Source: Gemmatimonadota bacterium
GTDB lineage: Bacteria; Gemmatimonadota; Gemmatimonadetes; Gemmatimonadales; GWC2-71-9
Assembly: GCA_003223395.1 (NCBI GenBank)
Contig: QHUZ01000040.1
Location: forward strand, 69,381-133,380
Length of the DNA: 64,000 bases
Reading direction: 5' to 3'
Part shown: one piece after another, positions 33,576-55,640 of the stretch
Layout of the letters: each line of letters starts with the position of its first letter
How positions within the stretch are numbered: the first letter of the stretch is position 1
Notes under the pieces: generated by a model
The model's database searches: none
Seen by the model: the letters and a program-made list of their open reading frames with translations, nothing else
What the model was told of the DNA's origin: nothing
Position numbers and translations under genes: made by a program

Positions 33576-36011
33576 ATGTTAGAGCCCGTGGACGACCTTC
33601 AGGCGCGGCTCGCCGCTGCACTGGCAGGCCACTACACGATTGAGCGCGAGATCGGCCGCGGTGGGATGTCCATCGTATACCAGGCGCGGGACCTCCGCAA
33701 CGACCGGTGGGTGGCCCTGAAAGTCCTGCGGCCGGAGCTCGCCGGCGCGCTCGGTCCCGCGCGCTTCCTGCGAGAGATCAAGGTCGCCGCCGGCCTCGCG
33801 CACCCCCACATCCTCCCGCTCTTCGAGTCCGATGTCGCCGATCGTCTGCTGTTCTACACCATGCCGTACGTGGAGGGGGAGTCGCTCCGCCACCGCCTGC
33901 AGCGCGAGCGGCGGCTGCCGATTGGCGACGCCGTGGCCATCGCCTGCGATGTCGCCGATGCGCTGTCGTATGCACACGCCCAGAACATCGTCCATCGCGA
34001 CATCAAGCCCGAGAACATCCTGATCGAAGCGGGGCATGCCGTCGTCAGCGATTTCGGCATCGCGCGCGCGATCAGCGCGGCGAACGAATCCCGCATGACG
34101 GGGGTCGGCATCGTCATCGGGACGGTGGACTACATGAGTCCCGAGCAGGCGAGCGGCGAGGAGCTCGACGGCCGCAGTGACATCTACAGCCTCGGGCGCG
34201 TGCTGTATGAGATGCTCATCGGATCGGTGCCGGCCGGCGGGCGGAGGTCAACCGGGATTGAGCGGCGCGATATCCCGCTCGAGATCGACCTCGCGATCCA
34301 AACCGCGCTGGCCGAGGTGCAGAATGAGCGGTTTGCAACCGCAGGCGAATTCGCGGCGACGCTGCGACAATCGAGCAGCGTCTCACCGTCCGGCTGGCAG
34401 CGGCGGCGCATCCGGCGTCGGTGGCGGATCGCCGCGGCGGCGGCGGGCGTCGCGGCCGTGGCGCTGCTCCTGTGGACGATCGCGAAACCCAAGTCGATTG
34501 CGCCACTCGATCCGACCCATATCGCCGTGCTGTACTTCGATGATCTGAGTGCGGGCGGCACGCTCGCCCACGTCGCCAACGGGATTACCTACGACCTCAT
34601 CGAGGCATTGGCGCGCGTGCCCACCCTGCGCGTGATCTCGCCGGACGGCGTGAAGCCGTTTCGAGGCCACGCGGTCGCACCGGATTCCATCGCGCGGGCA
34701 CTCGGCGTCGGCACGATCGTCGCCGGCAGCATCTCCGCGTCGCAGGATCGCCTGCGAGTTGCGTTTCGACTCGTGGATCCGACGAGCGGGGCGCTCATCT
34801 CGAGTGAGACATTCGAGCGTCCGGAAGGCGAGCTTTTCGCGCTGCAGGACACCCTGACGGCGGAAGTATCGACCGCATTACGTGAGCGTCTCGGCGCGGA
34901 TATCCGTGCACGTTCAAGCCGGGCGGGAACGCAGAGCGCGCGAGCGTGGGAGCTGCTGCAGCGCGCGGAAGCACTCCGGGATGAGGTCGCCCTCGGCACC
35001 GGAGCTGGGTCACCGGCGGAGCAGCTGCTGTCGGCGGACTCCTTGGCGGCGCAAGCGGAGCGTGAAGACACCCGCTGGGCGGAGCCGATCGTACTGCGTG
35101 GTTGGCTGGACTACGATTTGGCCAGTGTCCCGTGGCGCGGGAGTCCAATCAAAGGGATAGCAGCAGGCGTGACGACGCAGGAATGGTTGCGCCGCGCCCG
35201 TGCGCACGCGGACCGGGCACTCACGCTGCAACCGAACGATCCGGGCGCGCTCGAGCTGCGCGGTACGGTCCTTTATCGGACGTGGTGGGTTCAGGATCGG
35301 ACGGACTCGACTGGCGTGTCACTGAAGGATGCGGAACGTGATCTTCGCGCTGCAGCGCAGATTCCGAGTCCGGTGCAGGCTCGCGCGTGGGGCCTGCTGA
35401 GCGCCGCGCTCCAGTTTGACGGGAACACCCAGCAAGCGCTCGACGCTGCGCAGCGGGCGTACAGTGCGGACGCATTCCTGACGAATGCGAACGAGATCGT
35501 TTACCGGTTGTTCTACGCTTCGTTTCAGCTAGAGCGCTATTCAGATGCGCTCAAGTGGTGCGACACCGGCCGACGACGGTTCGCCACGGATTGGCTGTTT
35601 CTCCACTGCGAGCTCACGTTGCTGGCGTGGGCGCCCGATTTGCCAGCCAGCGTATCAGCCGCCTGGCGGGCCGTCGCCAGCACCCGCCAGATCGAACCTC
35701 CCCAGATCCGGGACTGGGCCGAACCGCGGTTGCGAATGATCGCCGCGACGGTCATTGCGCGCGCCGGCCTGCGCGACAGCGCCGAGCACGTGATTCGGGA
35801 TGCACGCGCGTCGGCCCCGGACGATCCGGAGCTCCTGTATCTCGAAGCATTGGCCAGAGTGCGTCTGGGTGATGCCGATTCCGCGGTGCAGCTCCTCTCG
35901 GCCCGTCTGCGTGGTGCGCCCGACGTACGACCCTATCTGCGCAAGGACGTCCAGCTGCGCGCACTTGCCGGCGACACCGCGTTTCAGAGACTGGTTGGTA
36001 CCGCCCACTAG
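33576..36011 (+). CDS. Transmembrane Ser/Thr protein kinase with a periplasmic TolB-N/CsgG-like module and TPRs
   Basis: ATG 33576. GRGGMSIVYQA, HRDIKPENIL, DFGIARA. TM helix WRIAAAAAGVAAVALLLWTI. Then IAVLYFDDLS...IVAGSISASQDRLRVAFRLVD and TPR-like repeats. Confidence 0.88.
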   Translation: MLEPVDDLQARLAAALAGHYTIEREIGRGGMSIVYQARDLRNDRWVALKVLRPELAGALGPARFLREIKVAAGLAHPHILPLFESDVADRLLFYTMPYVEGESLRHRLQRERRLPIGDAVAIACDVADALSYAHAQNIVHRDIKPENILIEAGHAVVSDFGIARAISAANESRMTGVGIVIGTVDYMSPEQASGEELDGRSDIYSLGRVLYEMLIGSVPAGGRRSTGIERRDIPLEIDLAIQTALAEVQNERFATAGEFAATLRQSSSVSPSGWQRRRIRRRWRIAAAAAGVAAVALLLWTIAKPKSIAPLDPTHIAVLYFDDLSAGGTLAHVANGITYDLIEALARVPTLRVISPDGVKPFRGHAVAPDSIARALGVGTIVAGSISASQDRLRVAFRLVDPTSGALISSETFERPEGELFALQDTLTAEVSTALRERLGADIRARSSRAGTQSARAWELLQRAEALRDEVALGTGAGSPAEQLLSADSLAAQAEREDTRWAEPIVLRGWLDYDLASVPWRGSPIKGIAAGVTTQEWLRRARAHADRALTLQPNDPGALELRGTVLYRTWWVQDRTDSTGVSLKDAERDLRAAAQIPSPVQARAWGLLSAALQFDGNTQQALDAAQRAYSADAFLTNANEIVYRLFYASFQLERYSDALKWCDTGRRRFATDWLFLHCELTLLAWAPDLPASVSAAWRAVASTRQIEPPQIRDWAEPRLRMIAATVIARAGLRDSAEHVIRDARASAPDDPELLYLEALARVRLGDADSAVQLLSARLRGAPDVRPYLRKDVQLRALAGDTAFQRLVGTAH

Positions 36012-46503: not shown

Positions 46504-47610
46504 ATGTTACGCATCGCACGCTTCACCCTCGTTGTCGCCTCGATCGCGCTTGCGTTCGCGGGCTGCCGAGATGCCGCCAGGTCGCTGACCGCCCCGTCGA
46601 GCGATCGCTTGGCGATGTCACGGGCGCTGGACCAATCCGCTCCGCTCGTGCCGCGCATCATCGCGCCTCGCACGACAGATCCGGACATCGACTACGTCCC
46701 CGTGCTCAATCCCCAGGTCAACCACCACTACGTCTGGCTCGATCCTTCCCAGAAGCCTCGCCCCAAGCTGCTCGTGTTTATGCCTGGCGCCGGCGGCACC
46801 GCTCGACCGGCGAGCTTCCTGCTCGTGCAGGAGGAGGCGGCCCGGCTCGGTTACCGGGTTATCGGCCTGATGTATCAGAACGACGCGGAGGTCGTCGTCA
46901 AATGCGGCGGCAGCGCCAACCCGGTCGGACATAGCCTCGATCCCGACTGCTCGAGCAACATGCGGCTGGAGATCTTGGACGGCATCGATCACTCGAGCGC
47001 CGTAACCGTGACGCGAGCTAACAGCATCGAGAACCGGTTGGCGAAACTGCTCGCGTACCTCGGCGACCAATTCCCGGACGAAGGATGGTCGCGGTTTTTG
47101 GAAGATGACGGAACGCCGAGGTGGTCGCAGATCGCGTTTAGCGGCCAGTCCCAAGGGTCCGGGCAGGCGGCGTTGATCGGGACGCTCCATCACGTCGATC
47201 GCGTCGTCATGTTCTCCGGACCACCCGACGCGCGCGTGCCCGAGGAGGTCGACCCGTGGATCTCCATTGGGGCGACGCCCGCGGCGAAATACTTCGCGCT
47301 CTTCCACGACCGCGATCATCTCGTCGTCGGCATCCGCGCGAATCTCACGGCCCTCATAGGGCAGTTCGGGGATCCGGTCATCGCGGAGTTGAATGACCCG
47401 CCGTACGGTGGGACGCACATCGTGTACACCGACCTCCGGCCTACGTTGGGATACGACGCTCCCAACGCGCCGCACCAGAGCACGGCTCGGGACAACAACA
47501 CGCCAGTCGATGCGAACGGCACGCCATTGTTGCGCGACGCCTGGCGCTACCTGCTCGGCGACGAGCCGCGTGGAGGAAGTGAGAAGGCGGTTACGCTCAG
47601 GACTCCGTAA
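46504..47610 (+). CDS. Putative lipoprotein, possible alpha/beta-hydrolase (GxSxG)
   Basis: Lipobox LAFAGC. A nucleophile-elbow-like FSGQSQGSG. No firmer family recognition. Confidence 0.5.
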   Translation: MLRIARFTLVVASIALAFAGCRDAARSLTAPSSDRLAMSRALDQSAPLVPRIIAPRTTDPDIDYVPVLNPQVNHHYVWLDPSQKPRPKLLVFMPGAGGTARPASFLLVQEEAARLGYRVIGLMYQNDAEVVVKCGGSANPVGHSLDPDCSSNMRLEILDGIDHSSAVTVTRANSIENRLAKLLAYLGDQFPDEGWSRFLEDDGTPRWSQIAFSGQSQGSGQAALIGTLHHVDRVVMFSGPPDARVPEEVDPWISIGATPAAKYFALFHDRDHLVVGIRANLTALIGQFGDPVIAELNDPPYGGTHIVYTDLRPTLGYDAPNAPHQSTARDNNTPVDANGTPLLRDAWRYLLGDEPRGGSEKAVTLRTP

Positions 47611-47618
47611 CTGACCGT

Positions 47619-47715
47619 TCTCCGATGATGGGTGATCCGGTGTCCTAGCGCACCTAGGTACCGGATCTCCATCAAGCGACAGTCATCGACGTCGTTGCAA
47701 GTTGCCGGGTCATGA
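47619..47715 (-). pseudogene. Decayed fragment of a BRCT-domain gene 3' end (copy of 49827-49881 and flanks)
   Basis: 47619-47674 aligns to 49827-49881 at about 49 of 55 positions by hand, with one inserted G and an in-frame TAG. Its translation, RLMEIRYLGALGHRIT, compares with KLMEIRRLAALGHRIT in the intact kinase-BRCT gene. Confidence 0.55.
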
Positions 47716-47845: not shown

Positions 47846-48808
47846 ATGACCATCACACGCCGCCATCTCGCTGCATTGACGGTGCTAGGACTGCTGGTCG
47901 CTTGCAGGCCGAATTCCGACCAGGTCGTATATCAGCTTCAGGCCGACCGCTTCGCAGGCTCCGAATGGTCCGAGCCGGTGAATCTCGGTCCCGTGGTGAA
48001 CTCGAACGCCCTCGACGCCAACGCCGGCCTCTCGTCCGACGCGCATACGCTCTTCTTCGTCTCGACACGCACCGGCGGTCTCGGCAACCTCGATATCTGG
48101 ATGTCGCGTCGCCGCTGTCTGGCGTGCGATTGGGAAGTCCCGGTGAATCTCGGTGCGCCGATCAACAGCGACGCGATCGACGCCGCACCGACGATGTCTG
48201 AAGACGGCCGCCTCCTGTTCTTCTATAGTGCGCGCGCTGGTGGTTTCGGCCTCGGCGACGTTTACGTCTCCCATCGCGTGAGCACCGGCGCGGACGGGGA
48301 CGTCTGGGGCCCTCCGGTGAACCTCGGACCGGATGTGAATACGGCGGCCAACGAGCAGGGCACGTTTTACGTGCATGAGCCGGGAGAGCCGAACGCCTTC
48401 GTGTACTTCAATCGACCGACCGCCGGCGGCAGCGTCGACGTCTATCGAGTCGCGGTGTCGAATGACGGCGACGCGCTCGGCCCTGCGGTTCTCGTCCCGG
48501 AGTTGAGCGACCCGGCCACGTTCGACCAAAAAGTGGCGGTGAGCGCGGACGGTCACGAGCTGCTGCTCTCCTCGTTGCGGGCGGGAGGCTTCGGCAACTT
48601 CGACATCTGGCGCTTCACCCGCCAGTCCGCCCAAGACCCCTGGTCGAATCCAACCCATTTGGACGCGCCGATCAACACTCCAGACGTCGATTCGCAACCG
48701 GTGCTCTCGCGCGACGGGCGCACACTGATCTTCACGTCGATCCGGCCAGGCGGCGTCGGCGTGCAGGATCTCTGGATGTCGACGCGCCAGCCGGGTCTGC
48801 AGCCATGA
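47846..48808 (+). CDS. PD40/TolB-like beta-propeller lipoprotein, paralog 1 (320 aa)
   Basis: GGGGGAGG precedes the ATG. Lipobox LLVAC. Five repeats of W..PVNLG..VN....(D/E)..P.LS.DG..L.F.S.R.GG.G..D.W. Confidence 0.8.
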   Translation: MTITRRHLAALTVLGLLVACRPNSDQVVYQLQADRFAGSEWSEPVNLGPVVNSNALDANAGLSSDAHTLFFVSTRTGGLGNLDIWMSRRRCLACDWEVPVNLGAPINSDAIDAAPTMSEDGRLLFFYSARAGGFGLGDVYVSHRVSTGADGDVWGPPVNLGPDVNTAANEQGTFYVHEPGEPNAFVYFNRPTAGGSVDVYRVAVSNDGDALGPAVLVPELSDPATFDQKVAVSADGHELLLSSLRAGGFGNFDIWRFTRQSAQDPWSNPTHLDAPINTPDVDSQPVLSRDGRTLIFTSIRPGGVGVQDLWMSTRQPGLQP

Positions 48809-49767
48809 CGCCGACTTCCCGGACGCTCGCTGCGGTGGCTTCGCTCGCGCTGCTCCCTGCCTGTGGAATAGAGTCCGATCGGAGCACTACGGCGAACCTC
48901 GTCGTGAACCCCACGGCGCACTTCTCCACGTGGTCCGAGCCCGTAAACCTCGGCTCGACGATCAACACGACGTTCAACGAACAAGGTCCGACGCTCTCGA
49001 ACGACGAGCTGAGCCTCTACTTCGGCTCCGATCGACCCGGCGGAATCGGTGGATTCGACGTTTGGGTTTCCCAGCGCGCCTGCAAGGACTGCGCGTGGGA
49101 AGCTCCACTGGACCTCGGACCGGCCGTTAATACAGCCTCGGACGAGACTGGACCAGGATTATCCGTGGACGGGCATCTGCTCTTCTTCAGAAGCACTCGG
49201 CCAGGCGGGGCGGGCCTCGGGGATGTCTTCCTCTCAAAACGCGCCAACCCGAAGGACGACTTCGGCTGGGGTGTCCCCGTTGCACTCGGGCCGGGCGTCA
49301 ACACCGCGGCGGCGGAGGCTGGTGCGGAGTTCTTGCAGAGCGCCGAGGACGGCGCGGCGAACCTCTACTTCAATCGAGCGCCACCGGGCGGGACCGCGGA
49401 TCTCTACTATGCAGCGATCACGCGGGACGGAGAGACTCTGGGGCCCGCCGTGCTGATTTCCGAGCTCAGTGACCCGATTGCCACCGATCAAGGTCCGACG
49501 CTGCGCTCGGATGGCAGGGAGGTGTTCTTCTTTTCAACCCGACCCGGTGGGCTCGGGGGGGCGGATCTCTGGACATCCACGCGGCGCAGCGTTCACGATC
49601 CCTGGACGCCGCCGATGAACGTGGGGGCGCCCCTGAACTCGCCGGCCGCCGAACAGCAGCCCAGCCTTTCGAGCGGCGGCTTGACGCTGCTTTTCGCATC
49701 GAGTCGCGGCGGCGGTTTTGGCGGTACGGATATCTGGATGTCGACGCGTGCGCGAGGTGCGCAGTAG
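48805..49767 (+). CDS. PD40/TolB-like beta-propeller lipoprotein, paralog 2 (320 aa)
   Basis: ATGA overlap with paralog 1. Lipobox LLPAC. It has the same five-repeat layout and the same Cys pair (CKDCAW versus CLACDW). Confidence 0.8.
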   Translation: MTPTSRTLAAVASLALLPACGIESDRSTTANLVVNPTAHFSTWSEPVNLGSTINTTFNEQGPTLSNDELSLYFGSDRPGGIGGFDVWVSQRACKDCAWEAPLDLGPAVNTASDETGPGLSVDGHLLFFRSTRPGGAGLGDVFLSKRANPKDDFGWGVPVALGPGVNTAAAEAGAEFLQSAEDGAANLYFNRAPPGGTADLYYAAITRDGETLGPAVLISELSDPIATDQGPTLRSDGREVFFFSTRPGGLGGADLWTSTRRSVHDPWTPPMNVGAPLNSPAAEQQPSLSSGGLTLLFASSRGGGFGGTDIWMSTRARGAQ

Positions 49768-49768
49768 C

Positions 49769-50869
49769 TCAGCCCTTGCGCCGTCGCGCCTGCGTCTTGA
49801 GCGCGGCGAGTTTCCAGAACTGCTGCTCTCCGATGATGGTGATCCGGTGTCCCAGCGCCGCCAGGCGCCGGATCTCCATCAGCTTCGTCCCACCATCTTC
49901 GCCGGCGATCTGCAGCTGGTTCGGCCGGCCACGCACGAGCACATCGGTCGTCCGCCCGGGTTTCGATTGGATGATCGCGCCGGCCTTGCGGGCCGCGGCG
50001 AAGGCCTCGCTCCGCGGGCGTCGCAGGAATCCGGTGATCGACAGCCGTTTTCCCGCCAGAGTCGCGACGCGCCCCTTCGCCAGCTCCTTGGGCCGATGTC
50101 GCAGCGCCGCGATCAGCTCGCCGGCGGCTTCGTAGCGCCTGCCGCGGCTCCCCAGACAGCGGTGAATGACTTCCTTCAAATGGTCGCTGCAGGGAAGGCC
50201 ACGGACGTCCTTACTGCGCATGGGACTGGTGATGTCACCGCGCAACAGCATCGCCGCGAGTTGGCCGACCTGATAGATGTCGTCCCGCTGTTGCCACCTC
50301 CGAATCCAGCCCCACGCGATCTCCGTCGGCGCATTGAGCGGGTTGAACGCGTCGGCGGTGACCCCGTGGCGATTGCGCTGATGCCGGGCGATGCCGAAGT
50401 CGCCGAGCTTGAGCTGCTCCTTCTCGCACACGAACACGTTGAAGGGCGTGAGGTCGCGATGGAGCGCCTGGCCGCGATGCAGCGTGTCGAGCGCGCCGAG
50501 GAGCGCGGCGATCTCGCGGCGGACAAAGCGCTCGGGCTGCGGGCCGCGCTGCTTGAGCCACGCGCCCACGTCGCCGTGCTCGGCGTACTCCATCACCATG
50601 CAGTAGCGCATGCCGTCGCCGTCGACTTCCGCAAACCGGTCGAACACGCGCAGCGCGCGCGGTTCCTGCTCGAGCAGCTCGGCGAAGTACGCCTCGCGCA
50701 GCCACGCGGTGAGACGGTGGCTGATCTTGATGCAGACCCGCGGCGGTAGCCCGCCCTGAGGTATGGGAGTCGACAGGTAGACCTCGCCGAATCCTCCCTG
50801 GCCGATGAGGCGGTCCAGCCGGTAGGTGCGACCGGTCTCGGAGCTCTTGGCCTCGGCTCTCTTTCCCAT
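49769..50869 (-). CDS. Soluble Ser/Thr protein kinase fused to a C-terminal BRCT-like domain
   Basis: IGQGGFGEVY, VCIKIS, HRDLTPFNVFV, DFGIAR. The C-terminal LAGKRLSITGFL...KPGRTTDVLVRG...TKLMEIRRLAALGHRITIIGEQQFWKL resembles the LigA-type BRCT. No TM helix. Confidence 0.75.
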   Translation of the reverse strand: MGKRAEAKSSETGRTYRLDRLIGQGGFGEVYLSTPIPQGGLPPRVCIKISHRLTAWLREAYFAELLEQEPRALRVFDRFAEVDGDGMRYCMVMEYAEHGDVGAWLKQRGPQPERFVRREIAALLGALDTLHRGQALHRDLTPFNVFVCEKEQLKLGDFGIARHQRNRHGVTADAFNPLNAPTEIAWGWIRRWQQRDDIYQVGQLAAMLLRGDITSPMRSKDVRGLPCSDHLKEVIHRCLGSRGRRYEAAGELIAALRHRPKELAKGRVATLAGKRLSITGFLRRPRSEAFAAARKAGAIIQSKPGRTTDVLVRGRPNQLQIAGEDGGTKLMEIRRLAALGHRITIIGEQQFWKLAALKTQARRRKG

Positions 50870-50924
50870 GCGACTTACTTGCCGCTCATCCAGGCGGCCG
50901 TCAAGCCGACGGCAGCCCTTCGCC

Positions 50925-50952
50925 TTGACACCCCGTCGCGCCCGGCTATATC
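50925..50952 (+). promoter_or_regulatory. Sigma70-like promoter candidate for the ECF sigma operon
   Basis: TTGACA (50925-50930), 16-nt spacer, TATATC (50947-50952), about 25 nt upstream of GTG 50978. Confidence 0.4.
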
Positions 50953-50977
50953 CGGCTGCACTCCCTCAAGGCCGGCC

Positions 50978-51763
50978 GTGGAAGATTGGGTTGCCGAGCT
51001 AGAGCGGGGCAGGTTCGACGCCGCATGGGACCTGTTCCTCGATCGGTACCGGCGTCTCATCTTCGCGGCCATCCGGCACTATGCCCAGGACTACGATGAT
51101 GTGATGGACGTGTTCGCGCGCGCGTGCGAGGCGCTGCGCGCGGACGATCTCCGGCGGCTGCGGTCCTGGGTCGAGCAGCCCGAGCATCGTGCCAGGTTCT
51201 CCACCTGGCTCGTCACGGTGGTTCGCCACCTCACCGTGGATTGGTTTCGCCACCGCGATGGCCGCCGCCGACTGTCCGTCGTTGCCGAAGAACTGCCGCC
51301 GCTGCGCCGCCGGATCTTCGAGCTCGTGTTCCTGGATCAGCGCAGTCACATCGAAGCCTACGAGCTCATCCACACCGGCGAAGCCGCCCCGCTCACGTTT
51401 CGGGAGTTCCTCAGCGAGCTGCGCGCGACCTATCACGCCGTAGCAACGGGACGACGGGGCCAGATCCTCCGCGATCTCGCTCCCACGTCCGAGGCTGTAG
51501 AGAATCTCCCGGCCGATCCTGCCGGTCCGAGCGCGACGAGTGCTGCCGAACAGAGTCAGCTGATGGAGCGGGCACTGGGTATGCTCGCCCCCGACGATCG
51601 CCTGATCGTGGAGTTGTACGTCCTGGAAGAGCTTCCCGCCGAGACGGTCGCAACGGTGCTGGGGTTGGCGAACGCGAAAGCGGTTTACAACCGCGCCTAC
51701 CGTGCCTTGGCGGTGGTGCGTGAGCATCTGGAACGGGCCGGCGTGGGACGAGAGGACCTGTGA
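50978..51763 (+). CDS. ECF-type RNA polymerase sigma factor with an extended region-2/region-4 linker
   Basis: Start set at GTG 50978, downstream of the promoter candidate; ORF-track start 50879 would leave only 9 nt to the divergent gene. Region 2 DVMDVFARACEAL...FSTWLVTVVRHLTVDWFRHR. Region 4 LIVELYVLEELPAETVATVLGLANAKAVYNRAYRAL. Confidence 0.8.
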   Translation: MEDWVAELERGRFDAAWDLFLDRYRRLIFAAIRHYAQDYDDVMDVFARACEALRADDLRRLRSWVEQPEHRARFSTWLVTVVRHLTVDWFRHRDGRRRLSVVAEELPPLRRRIFELVFLDQRSHIEAYELIHTGEAAPLTFREFLSELRATYHAVATGRRGQILRDLAPTSEAVENLPADPAGPSATSAAEQSQLMERALGMLAPDDRLIVELYVLEELPAETVATVLGLANAKAVYNRAYRALAVVREHLERAGVGREDL

Positions 51764-52446
51764 GCAGTCGGGACCCTCGGGACCGTCTCATGATGCCTGA
51801 CGAATCCTTCGAGGAGTTGAAGCGCGTGCTCGATACCCGGGTGCGGTCTGAAACGCCAACACCGGACTGCTTGCAGGACGACCTGATCGCGGCGCTCGCG
51901 TATGGATCCCTGGCTCCGGATGCGAGCGCAGCGGTCCTCCCGCACGTCGCTTCATGCTCCCGCTGCCGAGCGGCCGTGGCGTCAGTCGCGAGGGCACTCG
52001 CGGATCCGGTGATCGCCCGGGAATTGCCCGGCGCTCGCGCCGGGCGCCGTTGGTTCCGCATCGCGGTACCGCTTGCGGCCGCCGCGGTCCTGCTCCTCCT
52101 GCTCTCCTCACCCTGGGGTGACCGATTGCCCGGACACCGCGGGCCGCCACCTCCGCCCCCCGCAACCACGCCGATTCCTCGGTCACCGGTTGGGAGTGTG
52201 GCCGCCGCAAAGGACCTCCGGTGGAGTCCCGTCGTCGGGGCGGATCGCTATCGGGTGACGGTCTTTGACGTGACGGGGGGCGTGGTGTACGCGTCGGAAT
52301 CGTCCGACACCGTCGTCGCGTTCCCCGATTCCGTCGCGTTGGTGCCTGGCGCTTCGTATCTGTGGAAGGTAGAGGCGCGCACGGGCTTTGATCGGTGGTC
52401 GCCGTCGGAGCTGGCCGAGTTCAAAATCGCGTTGCAGCAGCGATGA
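51760..52446 (+). CDS. ZAS-type (zf-HC2) transmembrane anti-sigma factor with an Ig/FN3-like extracytoplasmic domain
   Basis: GTGA overlap. H-x3-C-x2-C motif (HVASCSRC). TM helix WFRIAVPLAAAAVLLLLLSS. C-terminal LRWSPVVGADRYRVTVFD...ASYLWKVEA. Confidence 0.8.
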   Translation: MSSRDPRDRLMMPDESFEELKRVLDTRVRSETPTPDCLQDDLIAALAYGSLAPDASAAVLPHVASCSRCRAAVASVARALADPVIARELPGARAGRRWFRIAVPLAAAAVLLLLLSSPWGDRLPGHRGPPPPPPATTPIPRSPVGSVAAAKDLRWSPVVGADRYRVTVFDVTGGVVYASESSDTVVAFPDSVALVPGASYLWKVEARTGFDRWSPSELAEFKIALQQR

Positions 52447-55400
52447 TAGTCGCCGGGATTGGCTGTCTCCTCGCTGTCTTGCAATCGCCTGCCTCCGATT
52501 CACTCCGCCTGCTCGCGCTCAGCCTGCCTCAGACCTCGCTCGTCCTTACCGTGCGGCAGCGGCCACTTGCGGTGCGCGACGCCATCACCGAGTCGCTGCG
52601 GCGCGGGGACCTCGATGCCGCGGGAAAGATCGCCGCCGCGTACGCGCTGGCGTGGCGCGACTCGTTTCTGGTGCGCGAGGTTGCGCGCTTTGTCGCGTGG
52701 CCGGCGGCGCGACGATCGGCGAAGGTGGCCGTCGACTCCATGCGGCGGGTGGGCATCAAAGCGTTCGGAGCAGAAGGCCCGCATGCCGCGGTCCAGCTCT
52801 GGCAACGTGCGCTCACACGCGCAGCGACGAACGGCGATTCGGCGGGAATGGCGGCGCTCCTGGGCAACATCGGGGCAGGGCTCCTCGAAGACGGCCAGCT
52901 CGATAGTGCGACGACCTATCTCGAGCGGGCGCGGGCACTGGCCACGGCGGTTGGAGACCTGCGCGTCGAGGCGAATGCGGTTGGGGCGTTAGCCGGTGCG
53001 CGCGAAGAACGCGGCGACCTCTCGGCGGCGCGCGCAGACTACGTCCATGCGCTCGCGCTGCGCGACCGCATCGGCGACACGCGGGGCAGCGCCGCCGACC
53101 ACAACAATCTCGGTCTGTTGGCTCAACGGCTCGGCGATCTCGAGGAAGCGCGGCGGCAGTTCGACAGCGCGCTCGTGTTCAATCGCCACGATGGTCGCGA
53201 TGAGGTCGCGGCGACGAATCTCGTCAACCTCGCGGGTCTGGCGAGTCTCGCCGGAGACTTCGCGCGCGCCGAGGCGCTGTATCGCGACGCGCTCGCGACC
53301 TGGCGGGCCCACGAGTCGTGGGCCGATGCCGCGGTGGCGCTCCACGGTCTCGGGCAGCTCGAGCTGCGGCGCGGGGACTACCCGGCGGCCGCTATCGCGT
53401 TGCGTGAGGCACTCGCCATCTACGCACGCACCGGACCCGTGGCCGAAGAGCTGGCCGTGCGGCGCGATCTCGCCGGGGCGCTCGCGGCCACCGGTGACCT
53501 TCAGAGCGCGCGGGATGAGCTGAGTCGGGCGCAGCGCCGCGCTGATTCCACGCGCGCGCCGCCCGCCGCGCGCGCCGGGATCGCGCTGGCGCGGGCAGAC
53601 CTCGCGCTCCAGCTGAATACGCTGGCCGAGGCCCAGCGCTTGTACGCGCGCGCGGAGGGGCTGTATCGACTGGGGGCCGAGCCCGCCGGTGAGGCCGAGG
53701 CGCAGGAGGGACGCGCGTTGCTGTTGCTGGAGCGCGACGACGCGGTCCACGCCCAGGCGTTGCTGGAGACCGCGCTGCGCACGCAACTGGGCGCGGGAAG
53801 TTTGCGCGCTGCCGCCTTGACGCGCGTCTCGCTGGGGCGCGCGGTCCTGGCGCGCGGCGATACCGGTGCGGCTCGACGCCATCTGGCGCAAGCGGTCGCC
53901 GAAATGACGCGGGGTGGCGATCCCGTGGCGGCCGCGGCCGCGCTTGGTGAATGGGCGGCGCTCGAGGCACACGCCGGCGCACCCATCGCGGCCGATTCGC
54001 TGTATCGCGCGGCGCTGGAGCGGCTCGGCGACCGCAGCGCGCCGGAGGTCGCGTGGCAGCTGCATGCGGGTTGGGCGAGCGTGCTCAAGAGCCAGGGCGC
54101 GACCGATGCCGCCGCGCGCGAGCTGCGGAGCGCGCTCAACGAGATCGATCGTACCAGCCGTTCGCTCGCCTTGCCGGAGCGGCGCTCGGCGTTCCTCGCC
54201 GACAAGTGGGACGTGTACGCGCAACTCGCGCTGATCGAGCGCGACCGTGGTCACGTTGGAGCGGCGTTCGATGCGAGCGAGCGGCTGCGGGCGCGCGAGA
54301 TGCTGGAGCTGCTCGCGCGAGGCCGCGTCTCGGCCCCACTGGACACCTCTCAGGATCTCGTTGCGCGGGAGCAGGACCTGCGCCGTCGCATCGGCGAGCT
54401 GACACATGACTTGGAGCAGTCGGACGCGACGGACCAGACACTCCGCGGTTCCGAAGTCTCCCTCAACGCCAGCACGACCCGCGAGTCGCTGCTGCGCGCA
54501 CAAGAGACCTACACCGACCTCCTGCTCGAAGCCCGCGAGCGCGCTCCTCGCCACGCGGCACTCGTCGCGCCCGACCTCGCCACCTGGCGCGGCGTCGCAC
54601 GGCGTCTGGCGCCCGAGGCGGCGTTCATCGAGTACCTCGTGAGCGACTCGACCACGCTCGCCTTCGTCGTGACCAGCGATACGCTTGCCGTCCTGGAACT
54701 CGGGACGCGCCGGCAGGAGCTGGCGCGCCTGGTTGACTTCACTCGCGCCGTCCTCACCCCCCGTCCCCCTCTCCGCGATGCGGAGAGGGGGAGCGATTCT
54801 CTGTGGCGCGCGCCGTTGCGACGTCTCCACGCGGCGTTGATCGCGCCTGTCGAAGCGACGGGATTACTCGCCGGCAAGAGCCGGTTGGTCCTCGTTCCGC
54901 ACGTTGAGCTGCAGTACCTGCCGTTCGCAGCGTTGATGGATACCGCGGGACACTTTCTCGTCGAACGCTACGAGCTCGCGCTGACTCCCTCGGCGTCGGT
55001 GTGGCTTGCCTTGGGGGAACGGTCCACGGAACCTGCCGGCGCCGGCCTGCTGGCATTCGCGCCGCGTCCCGCGACGCTTCCCGGGTCGAGCCAGGAAGTT
55101 GCGACCATTCAGCGCCTTGCTGGAACGGACGCGCAAGTCCTGACCGGCACGGCCGCGACGGAGTCGGCGTTTCGCCGCCTCGCGCCCACCCGGCGCGTAC
55201 TGCACCTCGCGACCTACGGTGTGCTCAACAAGCAAAATCCGCTGTTCTCGTTCGTTCAGCTCGCGCCAGATGGTGCGGAGGACGGGCGTCTCGAGGTGCA
55301 CGAGGTGTTCGGTCTGCACCTCGTGGCCGATCTCGTCGTGTTGTCCGCGTGCCAGACGGGACTTGGCTCGGGCGCGCTCGCCGATGTCCCCGCGGGCGAC

Positions 55401-55640
55401 GACTGGGTGGGGCTGACGCGCGCGTTCCTGCACGCTGGCGCGCGCCACGTTGTGGCGACGCTTTGGCCGGTGGACGACTGGGCGACGGCGGAGTTGATGG
55501 AGCGGTTCTATGGCGTGGGCGACGTCGCGGCCGACCCGGCGCGGGCGCTGGCCGAAGCGCAGCGCGCGTTGCTCGCGGCGCCGGCGACGCGGCATCCGTT
55601 TTACTGGGCGGGGTTTGAGAGTGTGGGAGGAGCGAGGTGA
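52443..55640 (+). CDS. TPR-repeat CHAT domain protein (caspase-fold peptidase family)
   Basis: ATG 52443 (ATGA overlap). Many TPR_12-like repeats (NLGLLAQRLGDLEEARRQFDSAL and similar). C-terminal CHAT domain: RLVLVPHVELQYLPFAAL, VLHLATYG, LVVLSACQTGLG, HPFYWAGFESVG. Confidence 0.85.
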   Translation: MIVAGIGCLLAVLQSPASDSLRLLALSLPQTSLVLTVRQRPLAVRDAITESLRRGDLDAAGKIAAAYALAWRDSFLVREVARFVAWPAARRSAKVAVDSMRRVGIKAFGAEGPHAAVQLWQRALTRAATNGDSAGMAALLGNIGAGLLEDGQLDSATTYLERARALATAVGDLRVEANAVGALAGAREERGDLSAARADYVHALALRDRIGDTRGSAADHNNLGLLAQRLGDLEEARRQFDSALVFNRHDGRDEVAATNLVNLAGLASLAGDFARAEALYRDALATWRAHESWADAAVALHGLGQLELRRGDYPAAAIALREALAIYARTGPVAEELAVRRDLAGALAATGDLQSARDELSRAQRRADSTRAPPAARAGIALARADLALQLNTLAEAQRLYARAEGLYRLGAEPAGEAEAQEGRALLLLERDDAVHAQALLETALRTQLGAGSLRAAALTRVSLGRAVLARGDTGAARRHLAQAVAEMTRGGDPVAAAAALGEWAALEAHAGAPIAADSLYRAALERLGDRSAPEVAWQLHAGWASVLKSQGATDAAARELRSALNEIDRTSRSLALPERRSAFLADKWDVYAQLALIERDRGHVGAAFDASERLRAREMLELLARGRVSAPLDTSQDLVAREQDLRRRIGELTHDLEQSDATDQTLRGSEVSLNASTTRESLLRAQETYTDLLLEARERAPRHAALVAPDLATWRGVARRLAPEAAFIEYLVSDSTTLAFVVTSDTLAVLELGTRRQELARLVDFTRAVLTPRPPLRDAERGSDSLWRAPLRRLHAALIAPVEATGLLAGKSRLVLVPHVELQYLPFAALMDTAGHFLVERYELALTPSASVWLALGERSTEPAGAGLLAFAPRPATLPGSSQEVATIQRLAGTDAQVLTGTAATESAFRRLAPTRRVLHLATYGVLNKQNPLFSFVQLAPDGAEDGRLEVHEVFGLHLVADLVVLSACQTGLGSGALADVPAGDDWVGLTRAFLHAGARHVVATLWPVDDWATAELMERFYGVGDVAADPARALAEAQRALLAAPATRHPFYWAGFESVGGAR

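Follow-up and report, generated by a model that had tools for sequence, protein, structure and literature searches.

The locus described here raises the question of what a protein kinase that ends in a BRCT domain does in the cell, and whether it acts together with the sigma factor operon that lies beside it. The window, that is, the whole stretch of 64,000 nucleotides that was analyzed, comes from a Gemmatimonadota bacterium (assembly GCA_003223395.1, contig QHUZ01000040.1, positions 69,381 to 133,380). The gene in question, complete in the list of open reading frames (ORFs), occupies 49769..50869 on the minus strand, from an ATG start to a stop codon at 49769-49771, and encodes 366 amino acids. 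A first-pass annotation, made from the letters alone, had taken the product for a soluble Hanks kinase with a LigA-like BRCT domain and had proposed that it adds a phosphorylation layer to the adjacent operon, which encodes an extracytoplasmic function (ECF) sigma factor, an anti-sigma factor, and a CHAT protein. We found that the gene product is a soluble Hanks-type kinase with a true BRCT domain at its C-terminus; what it does is, in our opinion, to be sought at nucleic acid rather than at the sigma factor.

A complete kinase fold

The kinase domain comprises residues 16-257 (50099..50824, minus strand) and has two full lobes, as judged from Pfam, Foldseek, and the conservation among distant homologues. 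Pfam Pkinase (PF00069) matched residues 16-219 with 74 bits, well above the cut-off of 31.7 (E=1.7e-20), and the motifs IGQGGFGEVY, VCIKIS, and DFGIAR were confirmed in the translation. The G-loop GQGGFG, K48, E59, D139, N144, the DFG at 157-159, and D197 are all present. We compared the protein with 20 close homologues (set A1) and 31 distant ones (set A2). Throughout the distant set, G25, G28, K48, E59, H137, R138, D139, N144, D157-G159, and D197 turned out to be invariant or nearly so, and conservation was at least 90% or complete for the Gly-rich loop, the beta3 Lys/alphaC Glu pair, the HRD Asp, the Asn, and the DFG Asp.

The AlphaFold2 model of the full-length protein reached a predicted local distance difference test score (pLDDT) of 94.3 and a predicted template modeling score (pTM) of 0.90. 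Its kinase half matched PknB of Mycobacterium tuberculosis (PDB 1mru) with a Foldseek E-value of 3.8e-16 and a TM-score of 0.75 on the target, and the bilobal fold aligned with PknB, CDK6, and Aurora over 265-290 columns at E-values of about 1e-16. The kinase fold is thus complete, and every catalytic residue is kept except the lysine of the catalytic loop, which is replaced by Thr141. No membrane helix was detected across the kinase-BRCT protein, the highest mean Kyte-Doolittle value over 19 residues being 0.52.

A BRCT domain of the LigA/RFC1 class

The BRCT domain covers residues 271-352 (49814..50059, minus strand) and was placed in the LigA/RFC1 class on the basis of profile, Foldseek, conservation, and charge. 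In the window protein itself the Pfam BRCT model (PF00533) stayed below its cut-off of 21.3 bits, with 14.1 bits for the whole protein and 17.8 bits for the C-terminal 111 amino acids. NCBIfam PRK06195 (DnaQ-BRCT), however, matched residues 257-354 (E=7.5e-6), and PF00533 was matched individually by 25 of 31 family members at E<=0.01, some relatives exceeding the Pfam threshold (for example, the one in locus L226, with 24.2 bits). The C-terminal domains of the 31 family members were then aligned (A3), and the resulting profile was searched against the PDB sequences. It matched the BRCT domains of Escherichia coli LigA (2owo, chain residues 598-669; E=2.9e-11) and human RFC1 (2k6g; E=9.3e-11), while the phosphopeptide-binding BRCT domains of Rad4/TopBP1 came next, at only about 2e-3, a gap of about eight orders of magnitude in E-value.

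Structure prediction led to the same class. The C-terminal domain modeled alone (pLDDT 84) was searched against the PDB with Foldseek, and 49 of the 50 best matches listed were BRCT domains (best E=6.9e-5; probability 1.00 for most), the sole other one being peptidase E (6a4r_B) at rank 47. The top matches were LigA, RFC1 on nicked or gapped DNA, and a model of the RFC p140 BRCT on double-stranded DNA. The predicted order of secondary structure elements, beta1-alpha1-beta2-beta3-alpha2-beta4-alpha3, fits the BRCT fold. T279, G280, R286, and K329 align with the TG...R...K phosphate pocket of LigA, and across family members of 31-54% identity each of the four is fully conserved or at least 90% so. 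From profile and predicted fold, we assign the domain to the LigA/RFC1 class of DNA-binding BRCTs.

The C-terminal half is also strongly basic. The BRCT region (residues 258-352) has a net charge of +12 and an isoelectric point (pI) of 11.8, and the whole protein a net charge of +25. A positive BRCT was found in all 31 family members (+4 to +19), whereas the E. coli LigA BRCT has a net charge of 0. The domain is followed by a basic tail, residues 353-366 (KLAALKTQARRRKG; 49772..49813, minus strand), which was delimited by its charge, net +6, and by a drop in pLDDT. In relatives it is longer and just as basic, all 20 close homologues having a tail of 11-43 residues and net +3 to +12, rich in Lys, Arg, and Ala. 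The tail is probably disordered; pLDDT falls to 73 at the C-terminal end of the full-length model. The BRCT domain, in contrast to its pLDDT of 84 when modeled alone, reached about 96 within the full-length model. The high pLDDT and pTM of that model imply that kinase and BRCT are packed rigidly, in a fixed predicted arrangement.

Most of what the first-pass annotation had said about the protein itself was therefore borne out. The Hanks motifs and the HRDLTPFN loop were recovered by Pfam and by translation, the predicted lack of a membrane helix was confirmed, and the LigA-like nature of the C-terminus was established by the A3 profile and by Foldseek. Of the two hmmscan matches it had called for, Pkinase was clear, while BRCT was missed in the window protein itself and emerged from its relatives and from the profile; the structure prediction that it had suggested for the C-terminal domain gave a BRCT fold.

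Threonine in the catalytic loop

The catalytic loop, read by direct translation, is HRDLTPFN (residues 137-144; 50438..50461, minus strand), so that the Lys of the HRDxKxxN signature is absent and Thr141 stands in its place. Since Thr141 is invariant in the 20 close homologues and HRD[LI]TPxN is the rule among the 31 distant ones, the substitution is evidently, from these alignments, not a sequencing artefact. HRD[LI]TPxN is a hallmark of the kinase-BRCT family. Outside the family, Lys occupies the position in 89 Hanks-type kinases of all the fetched loci, and Thr in 2. Both exceptions lie on viral contigs (IMGVR_UViG_3300045988_149728 and _169712, near positions 985 of L124 and 1010 of L126) and read HRDITPSN; no BRCT-like TG...R...GxK was seen in the 230 residues downstream of either kinase.

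Within the distant set, a small subclade (P0205, P0244, P0254, and P0262) combines the kinase-BRCT architecture with the canonical HRDIKPxN, and one member, P0268, has the loop HGGITPAN. These proteins would be useful for dating and testing the switch from Lys to Thr. More generally, a catalytic loop with an invariant Thr where Lys is expected offers a natural experiment in how a Hanks kinase dispenses with that residue.

A widespread and slowly evolving family

The homologue search returned thousands of homologues with up to 96% identity. At least 225 GTDB species representatives have a close homologue, at 72-96% identity; almost all of them are labeled Gemmatimonadales, Gemmatimonadaceae, or Gemmatimonadota. 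An exhaustive search of 50%-identity representatives gave 164 clusters at E<1e-30, many of them full length and spanning both domains at 31-52% identity; the distant members that carry names belong to Bryobacteraceae (Acidobacteriota). A subfamily of distant homologues of about 500-550 amino acids has a TY-Chap3 domain (PF22552) N-terminal to the kinase-BRCT core (L226 7884-9563, P0139, P0394, and others). Two short contigs carry labels from elsewhere, namely, L002 (VBJV01000112.1, labeled Chloroflexi), whose kinase is 96% identical to that of the window and has a PD40 neighbor, and L075 (CAYLTE010000265.1, labeled Burkholderiales), whose kinase is 74% identical. Both are probably mis-binned Gemmatimonadota contigs.

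Compared with its neighbors, the kinase gene was the best conserved one. Between the window and L001, its closest relative, the kinase is 96% identical and two neighboring PD40 genes are 89% and 69% identical; between the window and L005, the values are 91% for the kinase, 86% for CHAT, 62% for sigma, and 61% for anti-sigma. On these identities, the kinase-BRCT protein is slowly evolving, and its gene is the best conserved one locally.

No other gene accompanies it consistently. Flanking ORFs of the genome and metagenome loci were clustered all against all, with heuristic gene calls (based on GC3, the G+C content of third codon positions) that may miss short genes, and no conserved neighbor was found, the largest non-kinase cluster comprising 9 of 80 genome loci and 5 of 82 metagenome-set loci. 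Pfam annotation of selected loci revealed nothing recurrent either. The contexts are mutually unrelated and include CoA-transferases, a sulfatase, fumarase, ClpS/LptD/ZapA, ribosomal proteins, pyrroline-5-carboxylate (P5C) reductase, KatG, and ABC transporters. We conclude that the kinase-BRCT gene is a stand-alone, housekeeping-like gene in ordinary chromosomal contexts. The search for the architecture and its neighbors that the first-pass annotation had advised thus yielded kinase-BRCT fusions in many relatives and no conserved neighbor. DNA repair genes occur in single loci, Ku and LigD in L084 (13708-17248) and UvrB in L249 (1-117), and DinB-family genes lie near the kinase in L081 (6843-7382) and L247 (3871-4428).

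The neighboring sigma operon

In the window, the kinase gene starts 108 nt from, and divergent to, an ECF sigma gene (spacer 50870..50977, from the sequence and orthologue alignments). The likely start of sigma is the GTG at 50978, since this is the very residue from which the alignments to the L005 and L081 orthologues start, and with this start the spacing noted in the first-pass annotation holds; an alternative in-frame TTG at 50879 would leave a gap of 9 nt to the kinase. No match to a sigma-70-like promoter was found within the spacer. The operon (50978-55640, plus strand) encodes the ECF sigma factor (50978-51763), a zf-HC2 anti-sigma factor with one transmembrane segment (51760-52446), and a 1081-amino-acid TPR-CHAT protein (52395-55640) whose CHAT domain scores 212 bits, with starts and stops overlapping successively. 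Compared with TIGR02937, the sigma factor is longer by about 70 residues between regions 2 and 4. The anti-sigma start overlaps the sigma stop at 51760-51763, and its zf-HC2 score is below the Pfam threshold (19.4 versus 22.2).

We then asked how often this arrangement recurs. The window's sigma, anti-sigma, CHAT, PD40, and other neighbors were searched with tblastn in 80 GTDB loci and then in 166 loci (1.62 Mb). Among the 80 genome loci, sigma, anti-sigma, and CHAT were found only in L005, and the 166 loci added only L081/L082, so that 3 of 166 family loci (two genomes) have an orthologous sigma/anti-sigma pair no more than 8 kb from the kinase. The pair is absent from L001, from L003 and L006-L010, and from all the more distant loci of the 166; many fetched loci are short and absence from those is weak evidence, and the argument rests on the long loci and on the closest relative. 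Where the pair is present, its placement varies. In L005 it lies 1.4 kb from the kinase, an ORF of about 360 amino acids without Pfam match intervening, and the three-gene unit recurs. In L081/L082 it lies 3.4 kb past the 3' end of the kinase gene, on the other side compared to the window and convergent, and the third gene of L081 encodes a 431-amino-acid protein without Pfam match rather than CHAT. CHAT as third gene is thus limited to the window and L005. Upstream of the kinase, L001 has class-III aminotransferase genes, and so does L081, there with the DinB-family gene and a 95-amino-acid ORF before the kinase.

On this comparative evidence, we conclude that the adjacency of kinase and sigma is most likely a labile remnant of synteny in one subclade rather than a functional unit, with the kinase at a synteny breakpoint. 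That the kinase regulates the adjacent ECF sigma/anti-sigma/TPR-CHAT module by phosphorylating one of its proteins is, in our estimation, very improbable. The idea draws on the divergent arrangement only 108 nt apart, on the presence of the pair within 8 kb in 3 of about 10 evaluable closest genomes (window, L005, and L081), and on the existence of ECF sigma factors regulated by Ser/Thr kinases, such as EcfP/PknT and ECF43. In the ECF43-type systems and in EcfP/PknT of Vibrio parahaemolyticus, a Hanks kinase gene adjoins an ECF sigma gene, as in the window. Unlike in those systems, however, the linkage here is confined to 3 of 166 loci, most of the family lacks a sigma neighbor, and the distance and orientation change from 0.1 kb divergent to 1.4 kb with an ORF in between to 3.4 kb convergent on the opposite side. 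The kinase, moreover, has a much wider distribution and a higher conservation than the module, whose CHAT gene does not extend beyond two of the loci. Kinase-regulated ECF groups usually lack an anti-sigma factor, whereas a zf-HC2-like anti-sigma gene adjoins and overlaps the sigma gene here, which points to classical control of this sigma factor. The first-pass annotation had itself named a lack of adjacency in relatives as the outcome that would speak against a phosphorylation layer; adjacency was mostly lacking, down to the closest relative, and the proposed layer found no support. No new layer of ECF sigma control is revealed by this locus, and that part of the earlier finding is to be dropped.

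A proposed tether to DNA

We propose, with a probability of roughly 40%, that the protein is a stand-alone cytoplasmic Hanks-type kinase tethered by its C-terminal half to nucleic acid, most probably chromosomal DNA. Nucleic acid is favored as the ligand because the BRCT domain falls in the LigA/RFC1 class, its phosphate pocket is conserved, and it is extremely basic. The pocket and the basic surface would bind the DNA backbone or the 5'-phosphate termini at nicks, gaps, and ends, for which the BRCT domains of RFC1 and LigA may serve as precedent. The isolated RFC1 BRCT binds 5'-phosphorylated DNA with a Kd of about 10 nM (PMC9293009), the pocket of prokaryotic BRCT domains has been linked to phosphates at nicks and ends, and LigA without its BRCT has a lower affinity for double-stranded DNA (PMC10504179). 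Contact between BRCT and DNA would place the kinase on DNA and perhaps activate it, and from there it could phosphorylate DNA-bound proteins or itself. The Thr in place of Lys would alter the hold on the gamma-phosphate, and the enzyme may then need a ligand, or a basic residue brought in from elsewhere, in order to be active.

With this proposal we infer two steps, from a DNA-class BRCT to DNA binding and to a kinase acting on DNA-bound substrates, and several points weigh against it. DNA binding by the BRCT is a prediction, to which the charge of +12 and the pI of 11.8 would lend indirect support. In other BRCT domains, phosphoserine peptides or poly(ADP-ribose) occupy this pocket, and the high positive charge would suit RNA, ribosomes, or acidic proteins equally well. 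The pocket may be exposed or may face the kinase in the predicted structure, and Thr141 might mean weak or absent kinase activity. The repair genes near the kinase (Ku/LigD and UvrB) are anecdotal and non-recurrent, and we did not use them as evidence. A more far-reaching version, which we consider possible but doubtful, is that the family is a bacterial Hanks-type counterpart of a DNA damage checkpoint kinase, in which the BRCT would read 5'-phosphate ends, nicks, or gaps and place or switch on the HRDxTPxN kinase, so that nucleoid, repair, or replication proteins would be phosphorylated. If true, this would amount to DNA lesion signaling independent of the SOS response (RecA/LexA) and conserved in Gemmatimonadota and Acidobacteriota.

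The BRCT domain could instead be a phospho-reader whose pocket takes up a peptide with phosphoserine or phosphothreonine. The peptide could belong to the kinase itself, for autoregulation or dimerization, or to a primed substrate, in the manner of the FHA kinases Chk2/Rad53 or of polo-box kinases. We regard this as unlikely, even though the S/T-G...K pocket that BRCA1-type BRCTs use for phosphoserine is conserved here and Foldseek also matched the phosphopeptide-bound Rad4 BRCT1,2 and the kinase-docking Dbf4 BRCT. The profile likeness to LigA/RFC1 is about eight orders of magnitude better than that to peptide-binding BRCTs, the domain is single while the well-studied phosphopeptide readers are mostly tandem pairs, and neither the +12 charge nor the basic tail is needed to read peptides. 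The tight predicted packing of kinase and BRCT (pTM 0.90) would suit intramolecular regulation; as to a possible phosphosite, no conserved Ser/Thr was seen in the activation loop across the family, and a conserved N-terminal [VI]xSxx[ST]GxxY ahead of the G-loop could, as a speculation, take that role.

Two further readings seem improbable to us, and to about the same degree. One is that of an anti-phage or conflict kinase, in which the BRCT would sense foreign DNA ends and the kinase would trigger growth arrest, a mode of action already proposed for Stk2, PD-T4-6, and MAD6. PADLOC kinase models did match (mad6 with 93 bits, PD-T4-6 with 90 bits), but over no more than the N-lobe and catalytic core common to kinases in general (residues 7-166; mad6 positions 44-205 of 659). 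The flanks are highly variable, and restriction-like genes lie near some distant relatives (GmrSD in L167; SNF2, a PLD nuclease, and a transposase in L085; a helicase cluster at P0139); against this, most contexts consist of core chromosomal genes (fumarase, ClpS, LptD, ZapA, ribosomal proteins, and P5C reductase) and no partner gene is conserved. The N-terminal TY-Chap3 domain of one subfamily has been described in conflict systems. Yet a scan of 2.9 million viral contigs turned up no member of the family, and the slow evolution, with 72-96% identity across Gemmatimonadales and Gemmatimonadaceae, is unlike that of typical defense genes. The other reading is that of an ATPase or scaffold, in which the Thr at the Lys position would mark a protein that hydrolyzes ATP, or undergoes a nucleotide-dependent switch on DNA, instead of transferring phosphate to proteins. 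Ser or Thr also occupies this position in Bud32 (HGDLTTSN) and in Rio kinases (HGDLSEYN), Thr141 is invariant, and NCBIfam gave a weak Bud32 match (TIGR03724, E=5.8e-5, residues 89-168). The remainder of the domain, however, is that of a canonical eukaryotic-type protein kinase, with the HRD Arg, the DFG, an APE-like motif, and a full C-lobe aligned with PknB over about 265-290 columns, and the subclade of the same architecture that retains HRDIKPxN suggests an ordinary kinase ancestry and function.

Two narrower candidates were tried and rejected. Membership in known anti-phage kinase systems was discarded, as the PADLOC matches were confined to the kinase domain and the neighbors matched no PADLOC system. 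A phage origin was discarded as well, the scan of viral contigs having returned generic kinases only, mostly from giant viruses.

Relation to known kinases and BRCT proteins

Compared to PknB and the bacterial Hanks Ser/Thr kinases, the window kinase is likewise two-lobed, with the G-loop, the K48-E59 pair, HRD, N144, and DFG; it differs from PknB-type kinases in having no transmembrane segment, no PASTA, TPR, or FHA partner, an invariant Thr for Lys, and a C-terminal BRCT. The BRCT domains of LigA and RFC1 (p140) are the best profile and fold matches and share the TG...R...K pocket, and the domain is single and C-terminal, as in LigA, but its fusion partner is a kinase instead of a ligase or clamp loader. 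Two insertions set it apart from the LigA BRCT, one of about 8 residues (NQLQIAGEDGG region) and one of 5 residues. The LigA BRCT has been described as flexible (PMC10504179), whereas that of the window protein packs on the catalytic domain in the model. The two also differ in net charge, 0 in E. coli LigA versus +12 here.

Kinases coupled to a module of the DNA damage or replication toolkit offer an analogy, namely, Chk2/Rad53 with its FHA domain, Plk1 with its polo-box, and Cdc7 with the BRCT of Dbf4. None of these is homologous in architecture, the reader there being an FHA domain, a polo-box, or a BRCT on a separate subunit. RqkA of Deinococcus radiodurans, a bacterial Hanks kinase tied to DNA damage, is a possible functional analogue; it is a membrane-associated protein with a beta-propeller sensor that binds pyrroloquinoline quinone, and it is not known to carry a BRCT. 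In a recent preprint, a Ser/Thr protein kinase of D. radiodurans is mentioned as a DNA damage sensor (10.64898/2026.01.23.701218).

According to a 2023 review, most bacteria have BRCT domains only in DNA ligase and in a subunit of DNA polymerase III (PMC10386641), and the main text of a 2025 atlas of 42 bacterial Ser/Thr kinase families does not mention BRCT. Our full-text literature searches found no description of a bacterial kinase-BRCT fusion, of an HRDxTPxN loop, or of a BRCT in Gemmatimonadetes, in agreement with the initial impression that the architecture is unusual. Public precomputed Pfam matches already place Pkinase and BRCT on some of the relatives, so that the architecture is discoverable but uncharacterized in the literature. 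A large, slowly evolving kinase-BRCT family would carry the biology of bacterial BRCT domains beyond DNA enzymes into signaling, and the protein is a candidate for DNA-triggered or DNA-localized kinase signaling in poorly studied soil phyla (Gemmatimonadota and Acidobacteriota).

Other features of the window

On the 3' side of the kinase gene, at 47846-49767 (plus strand), lie two tandem paralogues of 320 amino acids with PD40 (WD40-like beta-propeller) repeats, which overlap by 4 nt and are probably lipoproteins. The second is convergent with the kinase gene, and the two stop codons are 1 nt apart. The pair is kept in L001 and L003, farther from the kinase than in the window.

A 66-bp sequence at 47609-47674 repeats, in the same orientation and with 85% identity, the stretch of the kinase gene at 49818-49881 that encodes KLMEIRRLAALGHRITIIGEQQ (BRCT alpha2-beta4). 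It lies 2.1 kb downstream of the original, just past the stop of a 368-amino-acid ORF (46504-47610). Copy and original bracket the tandem PD40 genes, an arrangement that points to an earlier duplication or insertion event at the kinase gene's 3' end. We rejected the idea that this 3' end is a general integration site that would explain the variable flanks, the 66-bp remnant being present in the window only and in 0 of 80 GTDB loci.

Finally, a segment at 33960-34370 (plus strand) resembles a Hanks kinase, with 28.6% tblastn identity over 147 amino acids to residues 126-258 of the kinase (E=2.7e-6), and the window therefore encodes at least one further kinase.

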